A stretch of 60,502 bases of DNA, filler included, from Sandaracinaceae bacterium (lineage in GTDB: Bacteria; Myxococcota_A; Polyangia; Polyangiales; JADJQN01), in assembly GCA_947483975.1 (NCBI GenBank). It is 7 parts of 7 records of this genome, joined end to end, with 100 filler letters (N's around TTAATTAATTAA, not from the genome) between each part and the next. Parts side by side here need not be neighbours in the genome. Positions count along the whole stretch, not along the records: positions 8,730 to 17,353 come from CANKOL010000229.1; 6 more parts are not named here. The stretch is one strand, 5' to 3'. The stretch's first letter is position 1; each line of letters starts with the position of its first letter. Positions 8,630 to 19,060 of the stretch are shown piece after piece. Position numbers and translations under genes: made by a program. The notes beneath the pieces were generated by a model. It ran no database searches. It saw only the letters and a program-made list of their open reading frames with translations, and was not told where the DNA came from.

Positions 8630-8729
8630 NNNNNNNNNNNNNNNNNNNNNNNNNNNNNNNNNNNNNNNNNNNNTTAATTAATTAANNNNNNNNNNNNNNN
8701 NNNNNNNNNNNNNNNNNNNNNNNNNNNNN
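8630..8729. other. Artificial contig-join spacer
   Basis: 100 nt of N with central TTAATTAATTAA (stops in all six frames). Confidence 0.98.
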
Positions 8730-8755
8730 CCGTCCGCTACCCGGAGGCTGCGTAA
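8730..8755 (+). CDS. Probable C-terminal tail of the intron-encoded RT/maturase (…VRYPEAA*)
   Basis: Only 7 codons plus TAA are visible. The call rests on its position about 25 nt before domain V, where intron ORFs end. Confidence 0.5.
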
Positions 8756-8875
8756 TGCTGTGTCCCGAGAGACCATCGGTAAGCCGTGTGCGGGAAATCC
8801 GCACGCACGGTTTGAAAGGGGGTCCTGCCCTTTCACTGATGAACTTCATCAAATGAAAGAGCAGGATCTACCAAT
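8730..8875 (+). mobile_element. 3' end of a group II intron (end of intron ORF, domain V, domain VI)
   Basis: Domain V hairpin AAGCCGTGTGCGGGAAATCCGCACGCACGGTTT (8781-8813) with AGC triad, GAAA loop and AC bulge. Domain VI: GGGGGTCCTGC…GCAGGATCT-A-CC with bulged A8870, ending AAT at 8875. Confidence 0.9.
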
Positions 8876-9566
8876 GACCTCTTCGACTCTGCGCCTCGGG
8901 CTGCTCCTCTCGCTCGCCCTTTCTTCCCTCTCGCTCGGCTGTGGAGGCGACGACGCACCGCCCGTCGGCGTCGACGGCGGGCACGACGCGGGCGCTGACG
9001 CCGGCTCAGACGTCGACGCCGGCGCGGACGTCGACGCGGGTGCGGACGTGGACTCCGGCAGCGAGGTCGACGCGGGCACGGACGCCGGTGCGCCCGACGC
9101 CGGGCCGGTCATCAGCTGCACGGGCGCTGGCGACTCGACGTTCCCGAGCTTCGCGCGCAGCTGCACGCTGGCGACGGACTGCGCGGTCGTCGAGCACCAG
9201 CTCAACTGCTGCGGCACCCTCGTGGCGCTCGGGGTCCGCGCGGACGCGCAGAGCGCGTTCGACGCCTCCGAGGCGGTCTGCCGCGGGATGTACCCGAGCT
9301 GCCGCTGCCCGGCGCTCACGACCGCCGCCGACGACGGCACCGTGGCTGACGGCGTGCACCCGGTGCGCGTCGACTGCCTCGCCGGGCTCTGCACGTCGAC
9401 CTACACGGCGGGCAGCGGCGATGTCTGCGTGCCGGGTGCCGCCGCCTGCGGGGCTGGCCTCTCGTGCTGCTATCCGTGCGGCATTCCCGGCTGCGAGAAC
9501 CGCTGCGAGCCGACCTGCGCGCCGGGCACCCCGGGCTGCAGCGGCGGCTGCTTCCTGCGTCCGTAG
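8874..9566 (+). CDS. Cys-rich lipoprotein with DAG-repeat linker
   Basis: ATG 8874 gives a signal peptide MTSSTLRLGLLLSLALSSLSLG-C-GGDD, then (D/V)DAG repeats and many Cys, ending in a CCYPCG…C module. Confidence 0.8.
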   Translation: MTSSTLRLGLLLSLALSSLSLGCGGDDAPPVGVDGGHDAGADAGSDVDAGADVDAGADVDSGSEVDAGTDAGAPDAGPVISCTGAGDSTFPSFARSCTLATDCAVVEHQLNCCGTLVALGVRADAQSAFDASEAVCRGMYPSCRCPALTTAADDGTVADGVHPVRVDCLAGLCTSTYTAGSGDVCVPGAAACGAGLSCCYPCGIPGCENRCEPTCAPGTPGCSGGCFLRP

Positions 9567-9592
9567 CGCGTCGGCTCGTCGTTCGGTCGAGG

Positions 9593-10282
9593 CTACGTCG
9601 CGTCGTTCGAGGGCGCGCCGCTCTCGAGCAGCTCGAGCTCGCGGAGCACGTTCGCGCGGGCTCGCGCCTCGAAGCGCGCGTGGAGCTCGCTCGTCCAGTA
9701 CCAGCGCTCGCGCGCCAAGATCTCGCGGAGGAACGCGCTCCGCCCGGCGCGGTAGAGCGCGTCGCTCACGTGCGCGTGCTCGCTGCGCACGCCCTCGCTG
9801 TATACGCGATAGGTGTCGACGTCCGCCGCGAGCACGGCGAGGTCGAGGTCGAGGACGAGCGCGAGGTCCGCGAGCACGCCCGGCGCGTCGTCCGGCGTGG
9901 CGCCGAGCTCGTGCGTGCGCGTCGCGAGGATCGCCCGCTCGATCCGCGCGACGACGTCCTCCGCGCAGCCGGCGCGCTCGAGGTCTGCGCGCGCGAGCGC
10001 GGCGCTCTTCGCCTCGTTGTCGCGCGACGTCGGGTCGTAGATCGCGTCGTGGTAGAGCAGCGCGCACTCCACCTCGGAGCCGCGCCAAGCGAGCGCGCGC
10101 ATCCCGTCGTAGAGCCGCAGACACGCCTGCACGTGCGCGCCCGTGTGATAGGCGCGGTGCGGCTCGTCGTAGTGCGCCAGCAGCGTCTCGCACGCCGCAG
10201 GATCGTCGCCGAGGCCGAGGCCCCAGCGCATCACGCGGAAGGACGTCGTCAGGCGTGCGTCTCGGAGAAAGTGCTCAGACAT
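9593..10282 (-). CDS. Predicted HD-superfamily metal-dependent phosphohydrolase
   Basis: HYDEPHRAYH…H, YHDAIYDP, DNEAKSA, LDLDLAVL motifs. Confidence 0.85.
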   Translation of the reverse strand: MSEHFLRDARLTTSFRVMRWGLGLGDDPAACETLLAHYDEPHRAYHTGAHVQACLRLYDGMRALAWRGSEVECALLYHDAIYDPTSRDNEAKSAALARADLERAGCAEDVVARIERAILATRTHELGATPDDAPGVLADLALVLDLDLAVLAADVDTYRVYSEGVRSEHAHVSDALYRAGRSAFLREILARERWYWTSELHARFEARARANVLRELELLESGAPSNDAT

Positions 10283-15598: not shown

Positions 15599-16816
15599 GT
15601 GACTTTCGACAATGCGCGCTACGAGCTGGCGCGGCTGCGGCCGACCGGCGGCGAGACGCCCGAGGGCGCGACGGCGCGCGCGGCGGAGCTGAGCTCGCGG
15701 ACGCTCGGCGTGCGGCGCGTGGGGGTCTGGACCTTCGACCGGCGGGGGCAGGCGCTGCGCTGTGCGTGTCTCTACGACGAGGTCGGCGGGCACTCGACGC
15801 CGGGCGACTCGCTCGGGCTCGCGGAGCTCGCGCCCTATGCCGCCGCGCTCGAGGGCGCGCGCGTCCTCGCGGCGGACGATGCGCGCGCACATCCCGCGCT
15901 GCGTGGCTGGGTCGAGGGCTACCTCGCGCCGCACGGCGTCGGCGCGCGGCTCGACGCGCCCATCTATCGCGGCGGTGAGCTGATCGGCGTCGTCACGCAC
16001 GAGCACGTCGGAGAGCCGCGCAGGTGGACGGCTGCGGAGAGCGACTTCGCGTGCGCGGTGGCGGACGCGCTCGGCTCCCTCGCCGAGCAAGCGGGCCGGC
16101 TCGAGGTGCTCGCGGCGCTCCGAGAGCATCAGCGGTTCGAGTCGCTCGGGCGCCTGGCTGCCGGCGTCGCCCACGACTTTCAGAATCTGCTCAGCGTCGT
16201 GCTGATCCACGCGGCGCGCATCCACTCGCGCCCCGACGAGGTCGCGACAGCGCGGGACTCGTCCCAAGAGATCCGCGACGCCGCAGAGGAGGGGGTGCGG
16301 CTCACGCGGCGCCTGCAGTCCTTCGCCGAGCCTTCGACGTCGCGACCGAAGCCGCTGTCGCTCGGCGACGCCGCCGCGCGCCTGGAGCCGATCTTCCGGC
16401 TCGTCGCGCGCGGCGCCACGCTCCTCGAGGTGCGGCGCGAGACCGCAGACGACACCGTGTCCGCGGAGCCGTCTCAGCTCGATGGGATGCTGCTCGCCCT
16501 CGTGACGAGCGCCCACGAAGCGCTCGGCGAGCACGGGGGCGCGATCTCCATCACCGTGCGTGCGCCGAGCGCCGCCGAGAGGCCATCGGGTCCGGCCTGC
16601 GTCGCTCTCGAGGTCGGCTTCGAGCCCCGACGCTCCCCGGACGACGCGTACGAGGTCGTCGGCGAGCCGCTCCCGAAGCCGCCTTCCAGCGAGGCCGACG
16701 GAGTCGGGATGGTCCTGGTGCGCGAGGTCGTCGAGCGCGCGGGGGGCACCCTGAGCGCCGCGGCCCGACGCGAGGTCGGCGGCGCGCGCGTCGTGCTCTG
16801 GCCGCTGCTGCGCTGA
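15599..16816 (+). CDS. GAF-domain histidine-kinase-like protein with degenerate ATPase domain
   Basis: GAF (LDAPIYRGGELIGVV), H-box GRLAAGVAHDFQNLL; N, G1 and G2 boxes are not recognisable. Confidence 0.75.
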   Translation: MTFDNARYELARLRPTGGETPEGATARAAELSSRTLGVRRVGVWTFDRRGQALRCACLYDEVGGHSTPGDSLGLAELAPYAAALEGARVLAADDARAHPALRGWVEGYLAPHGVGARLDAPIYRGGELIGVVTHEHVGEPRRWTAAESDFACAVADALGSLAEQAGRLEVLAALREHQRFESLGRLAAGVAHDFQNLLSVVLIHAARIHSRPDEVATARDSSQEIRDAAEEGVRLTRRLQSFAEPSTSRPKPLSLGDAAARLEPIFRLVARGATLLEVRRETADDTVSAEPSQLDGMLLALVTSAHEALGEHGGAISITVRAPSAAERPSGPACVALEVGFEPRRSPDDAYEVVGEPLPKPPSSEADGVGMVLVREVVERAGGTLSAAARREVGGARVVLWPLLR

Positions 16817-16858
16817 GCCGGCGCGGGGGCGTTCCCCGCAGGTCGGCCTGCCTGCGCC

Positions 16859-17353
16859 TCACTCGACGTCGACGACGCGCCACTCTCCCGACTCGCGCAC
16901 GAGCCGGATGTGCGCGCCGCCGGTCAGGCGCACCTCGGCGCTATCTCCCTGCACCTGCAGGTCGAAATTGGCCGGATCCTCCGTCGCGTCGAGCATGCGC
17001 GTCAGCTCCGCCTCCACGTCCCCGCGGGTCGAGCGCGCGAGCACGCGCAGCACGCCCGCCAGGCTCCGACGCTGAAGCGCGCGGCGGAGGGAGGCGACCG
17101 CGTCCTGCGGCGTGTGCAAGCCCGGCGCGTCGAGCACCCCGCCGTCGATGCGCCACGCGCCCTCCTCGAGGACGAGCACCACGACCTCCCCGTCGACGAG
17201 CACCAAGCGCGCCTGCGCCGTGATCGGCCGCTGGGCGCTCGCCGCGATCGCGCGCGCCTGCGCCTCGAGGTCGGCGCGGTTCTCCACGAACAGCGCGGCG
17301 AAGCGCGCCTCGTCGAGACCCGCGCGCCCGCGCTCGTCGAGCAGCGCCCAGCC
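16859..17353 (-). CDS. Hypothetical protein (5' truncated)
   Basis: Open from the contig edge to TGA 16859; contains two similar LVxExGxWR segments. Confidence 0.6.
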   Translation of the reverse strand, partial: GWALLDERGRAGLDEARFAALFVENRADLEAQARAIAASAQRPITAQARLVLVDGEVVVLVLEEGAWRIDGGVLDAPGLHTPQDAVASLRRALQRRSLAGVLRVLARSTRGDVEAELTRMLDATEDPANFDLQVQGDSAEVRLTGGAHIRLVRESGEWRVVDVE

Positions 17354-17453
17354 NNNNNNNNNNNNNNNNNNNNNNNNNNNNNNNNNNNNNNNNNNNNTTA
17401 ATTAATTAANNNNNNNNNNNNNNNNNNNNNNNNNNNNNNNNNNNNNNNNNNNN
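17354..17453. other. Artificial contig-join spacer
   Basis: N-run with TTAATTAATTAA. Confidence 0.98.
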
Positions 17454-18299
17454 ATCACGGAGGACGGCGGCTTCACCTGGACCTGTCGGCGCATGGCCTG
17501 CGGGAGCCACCTGACCGAGTGCGGCGACTGCGAGGACAACGACGGCGACGGACTCTTCGATGAGCGAGACCCCGAGTGCCTCGGGCCCTGCGACAACAGC
17601 GAAGGCGCCGCGCTGACGGCGGGCGTCGGCGGCGAGACCGGTGGGCCCTGCCAGTCGGACTGCTACTTCGACTTCGGCAACGGCCCCGGCAACGACGACT
17701 GCTACTGGGATCACCGCTGCGACCCGCTCTCCGTCGCGCCGAGCTACCCGCCCGAAGGCAGCGCCTGCGCCTACGACGCCTCGCGCGTCGGCGGCCGCAC
17801 CTGCCCCGCGACGCAGAGCGCGACCTGCGGCGACGTCTGCCGCCCGCTCACCCCGAACGGCTGCGACTGCTTCGGCTGCTGCACGTTCGACGCGATCGCG
17901 GGGCGCAGCGCGGGCGCAGGTGGCCCCTACGTGTGGCTAGGCTCCGTGTTCGACGGCACCAACACCGGCAGCTGCACGCTCGCCGACCTCGCGGACACCT
18001 CGCTCTGCAAGCCGTGCACGCCCGTCGCGAACTGCCTCAACGACTGCGGACGCTGCGAGCTCTGCGTCGGCCGCGACCCGGCGAGCCTCCCGGCCGACTG
18101 CTTCGCCCCGCCTCCGACCGACGGAGGCACGCCGCTCGGCGACGGCGGCGCTCCCGTCGACCTCGGCCCGCCGGTCGATCTAGGCCCGCCGTCGCTGCGC
18201 TGCGCTCCTGGCCTGCAAGCCTGTGGCCTGCCGAGCGACCCAGTCTGCAACGTCGGCTTCTACTGCGTCACGGGCTGCTGCATCTCGACGTTCTTCTGA
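17454..18299 (+). CDS. Cys-rich extracellular protein (5' truncated)
   Basis: Open from the contig edge; DNDGDGLFD Ca-binding-like loop, many Cys and a DGG/DLGPP linker. Confidence 0.75.
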   Translation: MTEDGGFTWTCRRMACGSHLTECGDCEDNDGDGLFDERDPECLGPCDNSEGAALTAGVGGETGGPCQSDCYFDFGNGPGNDDCYWDHRCDPLSVAPSYPPEGSACAYDASRVGGRTCPATQSATCGDVCRPLTPNGCDCFGCCTFDAIAGRSAGAGGPYVWLGSVFDGTNTGSCTLADLADTSLCKPCTPVANCLNDCGRCELCVGRDPASLPADCFAPPPTDGGTPLGDGGAPVDLGPPVDLGPPSLRCAPGLQACGLPSDPVCNVGFYCVTGCCISTFF

Positions 18300-18319
18300 G
18301 CGACACCAGGCGCGCTCGC

Positions 18320-19060
18320 TCACTGGAGCAGCGCGCCACCGTCGACGATGAGCGTCGTGCCCGTCGTCCACGGGGAGTCGAGCAAGAAGAGCACCGCCTC
18401 GGCGATCTCGTCGGTGCGCCCGATGCGCCCGAGCGCGTGCGCCCGCGCGAGCCCGCTCAGGTCGCGCCCGCGCAGCATCTCCGTGTCGACCGCGCCCGGC
18501 GCCACGACGTTCACGCGGATGCCGCGCGGCGCAAGCTCGAGCGCCATCGTCCGCGCCGCCGCCTCGAGCCCCGCCTTCGAGGCCGCGTACGCGAGCGTAC
18601 CGGCGACCGAGCGATGCGCGAGGTTGGAGCCGAGCAGCACGACCGCCCCGCCGTCCGACAGCCTGCCCAGCGCGCGCTGCGCCAAGAGCACCGGCGCGAC
18701 GAGGTTCGTGCTCAGCGTCGCGCCGAGGTCCTCGTCGGTGATCGCGCCGAACAGCGCGTGCCGCGCGATCCCCGCAGAGAGCACGAGCGCGTCGAGCCCA
18801 CCGAGCACGGCGACCGCGGCGTCGAGGAGCCCCGCGCGCTCCTGCTCGCTCGTCACGTCCCCAGGCACCGCGAAGATGCCGCCCGCGCCGCCCTCCTGCT
18901 TGCTCTCGGCGACGAGCTCCGTCAGCGCCGCGACGTCCCGCCCGCACGCCGCGACCCAGTCACCGCGCGCCGCGAGCAGGACCGCGACCGCGCGCCCGAT
19001 GCCTCGGCTCGCGCCGGTGACGAGCACACGCTGCGGGACCTTCGAGGGGGGAATCGTCAC
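18320..19060 (-). CDS. Short-chain dehydrogenase/reductase
   Basis: TGASRGIG, YAASK, IRVNVVAPG motifs; GTG 19060 overlaps the folB-cupin stop. Confidence 0.9.
   Translation of the reverse strand: MTIPPSKVPQRVLVTGASRGIGRAVAVLLAARGDWVAACGRDVAALTELVAESKQEGGAGGIFAVPGDVTSEQERAGLLDAAVAVLGGLDALVLSAGIARHALFGAITDEDLGATLSTNLVAPVLLAQRALGRLSDGGAVVLLGSNLAHRSVAGTLAYAASKAGLEAAARTMALELAPRGIRVNVVAPGAVDTEMLRGRDLSGLARAHALGRIGRTDEIAEAVLFLLDSPWTTGTTLIVDGGALLQ

Follow-up and report, generated by a model that had tools for sequence, protein, structure and literature searches.

The window analysed here is a stretch of 60,502 nucleotides (nt) from the assembly of a Sandaracinaceae bacterium (GCA_947483975.1, G000 below), in which seven parts of the genome are joined end to end. 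Positions 8731-8876 of the window hold the 3' terminal part of a group II intron copy, of which only the last 146 nt are present. The intron occurs in multiple copies and is predicted from its relatives to encode a reverse transcriptase (RT) without an endonuclease. It belongs to a lineage that very probably inserts exactly between the start codon and the second codon of genes with a leaderless layout, and that carries a spare AUG and, in most copies, a Shine-Dalgarno (SD) sequence at its own 3' end. The gene behind the intron is probably still readable by means of this spare start codon.

The letters at 8861-8882 read GCAGGATCTACCAATGACCTCT. As a first-pass annotation of this DNA had noted, an AGGA at 8863-8866 lies 7 nt upstream of the ATG at 8874-8876, which opens an intact lipoprotein signal peptide. 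The same annotation had proposed a group II intron with domains V and VI, and an Rfam scan bears this out: RF00029 matches 8779-8878 with 44.5 bits (gathering cut-off 40, E 1.6e-05) and is the only Rfam family above threshold in the 60.5-kb window, with five further matches above the cut-off elsewhere in G000. The minimum free energy (MFE) fold of 8779-8880 has -48.8 kcal/mol and a z-score of -6.8, equalled by none of 200 shuffled sequences, and it recovers both hairpins. The domain V hairpin (8780-8814, 35 nt, with an AGC triad) and the domain VI helix (8818-8872) are placed by the RF00029 alignment and the fold; A8870, bulged in the latter, presumably serves as branch point and lies 7 nt from where the intron is inferred to end. 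The SD-like AGGA falls in the 3' strand of domain VI. Farther upstream, 8757-8779 probably contain the 3' strand that closes domain IV, together with the linker leading to domain V, judging from their position between the RT stop and domain V and from conservation in the alignment. The end of the RT/maturase open reading frame (ORF) occupies 8733-8756, with the last seven codons (VRYPEAA) and a TAA stop; the same C-terminal motif is found in full-length relatives, whose RT ORF terminates in ...LRGT(V/I)(R/Q)YPE(AA)*. All of these features lie on the plus strand.

When G000 was searched with window positions 8731-8880, six genuine places were found. Four are the starts of contigs C229 (which begins at window position 8731), C103, C94 and C4, 100% identical over 147 nt, and two are internal, at C39:19942-20087 (minus strand, 94% identical) and C15:27893-28032 (minus strand, 80% identical). 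In the alignment all six run to ...CC(A/C)ATG and then diverge fully. Each ends at an ATG in front of a different ORF, a regularity beyond chance and one that an intron aimed at start codons, the proposal of the first-pass annotation, would predict; five of the ORFs have lipoprotein-type signal peptides and one, at C103:145-429, resembles Phd/YefM antitoxins (Pfam 6.5e-07, slightly short of the curated cut-off). Fourteen pairs of contig ends in this assembly share an overlap of 149 nt, so that the four identical contig starts are k-1 cuts within a longer repeat. The missing 5' junctions of the G000 copies are the ends of six other contigs (C17, C21, C44, C121, C160 and C178), which share an identical 139-nt intron 5' end beginning with GTGCG. 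This 5' end is preceded by ATG in five contigs and by GTG in one, with the base C at position -4, directly before the start codon, in all six and with a TAnnnT motif 7-8 nt farther upstream. The suspicion that the element is multi-copy was thus well founded. The intron body itself is unbinned: in the bin, the GIIM domain was found only on C37 and RVT_1 only on C37 and C238, and all of these belong to other elements.

In the C39 and C15 copies, unrelated DNA begins ~140-150 nt ahead of the ATG. Copies truncated at the 5' end are a frequent outcome of target-primed reverse transcription, and by their sequence these two are older tails of this kind, from which lipoprotein genes still take their ATG; in the C15 copy the AGGA and the bulged A are gone and the ATG is kept. 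It could be argued from them that the window copy is likewise a dead relic, its ~146 nt doing no more than providing the lipoprotein gene with a fixed leader that contains SD and AUG, the more so as truncated and RT-deleted copies also occur among the relatives and the intron body is missing from the bin. We regard this as quite improbable. The four 3' ends are 100% identical, as are the six 5' ends, and the start of the window contig is a k-mer cut rather than the end of similarity. Moreover, among four sequencing runs, which were compared as assembled contigs and as such show no transcript starts, splice joints or levels, a DNA contig of run X10 fits 8731-8877 without a mismatch and continues 1034 nt farther upstream. 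Two RNA-library contigs (1827 and 1992 nt) also cover the intron tail, the 1827-nt one continuing into another exon; carry-over of DNA into these libraries is possible.

The upstream DNA of the C39 and C15 copies had also raised the idea of a stand-alone domain V-VI leader element. This was rejected, as the truncation points vary (~140, 150, 165, 250+ and 620 nt) and full-length relatives exist.

Matches to the 146-nt tail are present in 79 of 401 genomes of the same order, G000 included. Pooling of 3' ends covered 83 loci, 5 of them without a readable 3' end, and yielded 59 distinct copies. Every one of the 59 ends at a start codon, ATG in 53 and GTG in 6. An ORF of at least 60 amino acids (aa) follows 55 of the 59, and 32 of these 55 ORFs have a Pfam match at E<=1e-5. 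Many of the Pfam alignments begin within the first ten residues and at profile position 1-3 (MoaC, LGT, AMP_N, AhpC-TSA, Fer2, ICL, YacG and adh_short), indicating that the terminal triplet stands at true N-termini, those of housekeeping genes included. Full-length copies measure 2018-2070 nt, with the RT starting at about nt 550-586 and a variable hairpin of ~45 nt at nt 12-58. The RT of one relative has 449 aa, with RVT_1 (5e-37) and GIIM (6e-17) domains and no endonuclease domain; its nearest solved structure is the GsI-IIC RT (E 3.6e-57), and IIC RTs rank before chain 6me0. The 5' part of the ribozyme, which totals ~690 nt, matches Rfam D1D4-4 in the relatives. The G000 5' ends with their GUGYG start, the RF00029 match, the bulged A and the RT with maturase domain of the relative together identify the element as a group II intron.

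Relatives also include 5'-truncated copies and copies of 893-1517 nt from which the RT is deleted. Four of the latter (L056, L062, L074 and L066, of 1000, 893, 1157 and 1517 nt) keep both intron ends and the ATG...ATG arrangement behind TAnnnT. Such RT-deleted derivatives may be non-autonomous copies mobilised in trans. Beyond the order, a scan of species-representative genomes found at least 584 relatives of the RT. The best 80 of these come from Myxococcota, Acidobacteriota, Planctomycetota, Gemmatimonadota, Eisenbacteria, Beta- and Gammaproteobacteria, Spirochaetota and Actinomycetota, so that, judged by RT similarity, the relatives span at least eight phyla. A copy on a Streptomycetaceae plasmid shares the same intron ends. 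Behind the terminal ATG of five copies from other phyla (L180, L185, L224, L226 and L223), the ORFs seem, judged by eye, to be core housekeeping genes, with dnaX-like, mnmE-like, nadD-like, aroC-like and etfB-like N-termini.

The boundaries of the intron can be placed by comparison. In the first set of distinct 5' junctions all 33 read ATG|GTGCG, and among 84 pooled junctions the exon ends in ATG in 79 and in GTG in 3. One clean empty site was found, in the moaC gene of genome G113. There the flank and start of the gene read TACGCT-CGCGAG-ATG-AGC-GAC, and the protein is 99% identical to that of G045, whose moaC has the same flanks but reads ATG|GTGCG...CTACCAATG|AGC-GAC. The genomes searched for this included one unpublished genome, G122, which contributes to none of these results. 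The intron therefore sits between the ATG and codon 2, with an ATG at each of its ends. The origin of the second ATG is revealed by genome G162, in which all four copies end in GTG while the three readable 5' exons all end in ATG. By contrast, the copies end in ATG in G097 (8/8), G045 (8/8), G198 (3/3) and G354 (3/3), and GTG is never mixed into an ATG lineage. The 3' triplet thus travels with the intron. An intron ending in ...CCA, with the triplet derived from the host, was rejected on the same two grounds, the GTG of 4/4 copies in G162 and the lack of any mixed genome among the ATG lineages.

Two pairings between intron and exons further define the splice sites. The first involves an exon-binding site (EBS) in a hairpin loop of domain I (GCCG-..CAU-N..-CGGC), in which CAU is invariant and the next base pairs with the base preceding the ATG. 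CAUG accompanies C at -4, and CAUU or CAUC accompany G at -4; in the pooled set the fourth base pairs with -4 in 65 of 68 cases, 49 of them Watson-Crick. This covariation indicates that EBS1 pairs with (N)AUG and that the 5' splice site follows directly after the AUG. The second pairing is at the 3' side, where the base after the terminal ATG is specific to the lineage: A in the 4/4 identical G000 copies (window position 8877, the first base of the 3' exon and of codon 2, taken to be the intron-binding site IBS3), C in 7/8 in G097, A in 8/8 in G045, C in 4/4 in G162 and G in 3/3 in G198. Only one of 620 aligned domain I columns pairs with this +1 base in 9/9 lineages, and no other column fits. 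In the pooled set this EBS3 column (GGGGUA-N-GGG) pairs with +1 in 38 of 39 cases, all Watson-Crick, across 33 lineages, which places the 3' splice site after the AUG. The best-supported reading is therefore an intron GUGCG...CUACCAAUG that ends after G8876 and owns its second start codon. The AUG at 8874-8876, taken to be intronic on the grounds of the GTG-ending lineage, the empty site and the EBS3 covariation, would make up both the last three bases of the intron and the current start codon of the lipoprotein.

The first-pass annotation had instead taken the AT at 8874-8875 as a canonical terminal AY (A followed by a pyrimidine), leaving G to the host. In that case the intron would end ..CCAAU|G, the start codon would be split between intron and exon, and the 5' splice site would be AU|GGUGCG. 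Such an end would keep the AY rule, which the best-supported end (...AAUG, or ...AGUG in 6/59 copies) does not; the repeated ATG leaves the DNA boundaries formally ambiguous by 1-3 nt, and the Rfam alignment itself does not decide the intron end. Nevertheless, the comparative evidence makes the AY end very unlikely. EBS3 would have to pair with a constant G, yet its column holds G, U, C or A and is paired with the base that follows the ATG in 38/39; the invariant C of EBS1 pairs with the G of AUG as position -1. The intron would also start with GGUGCG, and the G162 lineage would end in GU. Finally, the branch A would lie 6 nt from the end, a distance that had been recorded as an oddity of this copy; with the end after G8876 it is 7 nt, the usual distance, and the puzzle disappears. 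Of the idea that intron and gene share the start codon, then, the ATG at the intron end is retained; the whole AUG would be intronic, and the host's own ATG lies at the 5' boundary of the intron.

The pairing with the target is short, with four EBS1 positions and one EBS3 position. No EBS2/IBS2 pairing was seen by eye in the 5' exons, nor, again by eye, any conservation at -5 to -9 within lineages. What the 5' exons do share is a promoter-like element. TAnnnT occurs 5-8 nt before the 5' ATG in 30 of the 33 junctions of the first set, against 78 of 6506 (1.2%) of all ATGs in the same loci, and in 73 of 80 pooled junctions. In seven intron-free moaC orthologs (that of G113 and six from other genera) a -10-like hexamer stands 6-7 nt before the ATG or GTG, and six of the seven are an exact TAnnnT. 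By established promoter spacing, a -10 box at this distance corresponds to transcription that starts at the A of the start codon. The targets appear to be leaderless-type starts, with a -10 box 5-8 nt before the start codon.

This arrangement could have arisen without any recognition of the promoter. If the five paired bases (N-AUG|N) alone directed insertion, the bias towards -10 boxes and gene starts might reflect loss of unexpressed or harmful insertions. Only the 4+1 pairing has been found, with no EBS2/IBS2 by eye, and a frame open from the host ATG into the RT would tie expression of the intron to leaderless sites. We consider selection alone unlikely, however. In G000, 24331 sites fit C(A/G)TG|A and 155 of these have TAnnnT upstream, yet 6/6 of the 5' junctions have it. 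Five paired bases therefore cannot explain the choice of site, and a promoter-linked cue is favoured. Recent bursts, with 9 near-identical copies in G097 and 8 in G045, are all at TAnnnT sites, although neutral insertions in intergenic DNA or dispensable genes should still show among young copies. As to the nature of a promoter-linked cue, we can only speculate; it might be the -10 element as such, or the single-stranded DNA of a transcription complex that is open or initiating.

Translation signals carried by the intron concern both its RT and the downstream gene. Of 36 distinct full-length introns, 29 have no stop within their first 560 nt in frame 1, which is the phase of the host ATG; for frames 2 and 3 the figure is 0/36, and for shuffled sequences 1.2%. 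In 28 of the 36, frame 1 stays open for at least 600 codons, and in fully read copies it reaches the RT stop. These full-length introns come from relatives L058-L075 and L151-L230; in them the stop-free ribozyme (domains I-III) continues into the RT behind an upstream exon of a single codon. A conserved internal GAGGG-N-ATG, located at nt 522-585 of the pooled introns, shares this frame in 28/32. At the other end, 52 of 59 copies have an SD-like 4-mer 5-13 nt upstream of the terminal start codon (an exact AGGA in 42), compared with 563 of 3299 control ATGs (17%). The proposal of the first-pass annotation that the 3' end of the intron supplies the start codon, and possibly the SD, of its host gene is thereby upheld, for the SD in most copies.

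On this basis, expression could proceed as follows. Transcription would start at the 5' AUG, and ribosomes starting at this host AUG would read the open frame through domains I-III into the RT, for whose translation the host AUG, the internal start or both may serve. By splicing, AUG and codon 2 would be joined again. Alternatively, the host protein could be made directly from the intron-borne SD and AUG on unspliced RNA, in which case the predicted folding of domain VI would possibly limit access to the SD. The first-pass annotation had proposed that intron folding or splicing might gate translation, and the paired AGGA of domain VI is the one sign in its favour.

Several observations weigh against parts of this account, in addition to the UG end and the boundary ambiguity described above. 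Among the pooled junctions, 7 of 80 are without TAnnnT and 2 of 84 have neither ATG nor GTG. The SD-like motif is absent in 7 of 59 copies, the C15 copy of G000 included, and an AGGA-type motif is missing, by eye only, from the listed betaproteobacterial and actinomycete copies. In the window fold the AGGA is paired within domain VI. With a 5' exon of three bases and weak EBS1 binding, it is doubtful that the exons are ligated efficiently; that transcription is leaderless, that the intron splices and that its own AUG is used are all deduced from sequence. As for the window copy, its intron body and 5' exon are absent from its contig, and it cannot be assigned to any of the six G000 5' ends, nor can the other 3' ends be assigned to theirs.

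RTs of the CL1 lineage carry D/En domains. Group II introns at start and stop codons have been described before, in a monophyletic IIB1 family at initiation and termination codons (Avi.groEL, EcKTE56.groEL), all members of which carry a 5'-subterminal insertion of 300-700 nt (Michel et al. 2007, as summarised in excerpts of Gomes et al. 2025, PMC12584367). According to the same excerpts, how this family colonises its codons is not known, experimental study has been confined to members at the groEL stop codon, and EcKTE56.groEL, of 3228 nt, is grouped with introns of the IIB1 type with CL1-lineage RTs (PMC12584367). Our introns resemble that family, as portrayed there, in being group II retroelements at host translation signals whose insertion rebuilds the codon (UAA to UAG in that case, ATG plus a spare ATG here). 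They differ from it in being only ~2.0 kb long, in having just the ~45-nt hairpin at nt 12-58 and in encoding a 449-aa RT without an endonuclease; the small size and the RT in particular set them apart from EcKTE56.groEL as it is characterised there. Since the defining 300-700-nt 5' insertion is lacking, the present introns fall, by this criterion, outside the IIB1 codon family. The excerpted text of PMC12584367 says nothing, for that family, of a leaderless context, of CAU:AUG pairing or of a terminal AUG, and in the literature searched we found no published work on leaderless, ATG or start-codon targeting by group II introns beyond the IIB1 codon family cited there.

The domain V triad of IIC introns differs from AGC. 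Class C (IIC) introns insert after terminators or into attC sites (excerpts of PMC4424553 and PMC12584367). The present introns are like them, so far as those excerpts describe the class, in their endonuclease-less RT, a very short EBS1-IBS1 pairing, no evident EBS2 and a generic target at a gene boundary. Unlike the hairpin or attC targets given there, however, the target is a start codon behind a -10 box, with flanks that read TAnnnT-N5-8-ATG, as seen without a formal hairpin scan. The ribozyme of ~690 nt, the AGC triad in domain V and the D1D4-4 match also differ from IIC introns, whose ribozymes are small (PMC3753933). In IIC-attC introns, domains I and II hold an outward promoter on the opposite strand (Leon et al. 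2010, PMC3001079, in excerpt). By analogy, both kinds of intron might keep the downstream host gene expressed through signals of their own, although in the present lineage, compared with what that excerpt reports, these would be an SD and a start codon at the 3' end of the sense strand rather than a promoter.

A continuous frame between exon and intron ORF has its own precedent. The yeast mitochondrial introns aI1 and aI2 have an ORF in frame with the upstream exon. The RT frame of the present introns is likewise continuous with the upstream exon (in 28 of 36 distinct introns the frame runs open from nt 1 as far as the RT stop), but the lineage is bacterial, the upstream exon is only a start codon, and an internal SD and ATG for the RT are conserved. 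The lineage shows a ribozyme sequence constrained to remain translatable.

Three target specificities are recognised for bacterial group II introns, namely long homing sites, terminators and attC sites (PMC4424553, in excerpt). Tentatively, and with rather less confidence than we have in the insertion site itself, we suggest a fourth strategy, in which the CAU of EBS1 serves the ribonucleoprotein (RNP) much like an anticodon for reading the start codon, aided by a promoter-proximal cue, the host AUG translates the RT through the stop-free ribozyme, and the spare SD and AUG repay the host. The lineage is a tractable case for study, with pairing rules that are readable from covariation, a shared promoter geometry of the targets and many copies. 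It also matters for annotation: the called ATG of such genes is intron RNA, and the true promoter lies ~2 kb upstream.

The lipoprotein-like ORF behind the window copy (8874-9566, plus strand) encodes 230 aa followed by a stop. It opens with MTSSTLRLGLLLSLALSSLSLGC, has a lipobox LSLGC with the Cys codon at 8940-8942, and its C-terminal part is rich in Cys. [quoted passage not shown] No Pfam family matches the ORF at E<=1e-5, comparison with metagenome contigs gave only distant relatives of the C-terminal domain, and no ortholog of it, or of the C4 contig's GH31 lipoprotein, came up in the three sister genomes. Run X3, from another lake sample, holds a 2963-nt DNA contig that matches 8874-9700 with 0 mismatches and extends 1168 nt upstream of the lipoprotein ATG with a sequence unlike the intron; this contig may represent an intron-free allele in the population. 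The first-pass annotation had suggested recovering the 5' end, the RT and an empty allele. These are now in hand for the lineage, as the six G000 5' ends, the RT of a relative and the empty moaC site, and for the gene behind the window copy the X3 contig is a candidate empty allele.

Upstream of the intron tail, window positions 8631-8730 are an artificial contig joint in which runs of N flank the linker ttaattaattaa. A different, complete-looking group II intron lies on the minus strand of C37 (~16730-18800), with a 575-aa frame that contains RVT_1 and GIIM and an RF00029 match of 41.3 bits; it ends canonically in ...CUACUCGAU (...CGAU), away from any start codon. The intron fragment on C39 is adjoined upstream by a 43-47-nt repeat end (...GGATGGACTACGCGC) that also occurs on C203, in two places, and on C453. 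On C203 and C453 this repeat end closes a longer repeat behind the end of a CxxC-containing ORF, which we take to resemble an IS91-type transposase. The same element also accounts for a second scattered repeat, of ~190 nt, with copies on C15, C37, C38, C51, C250 and C434.

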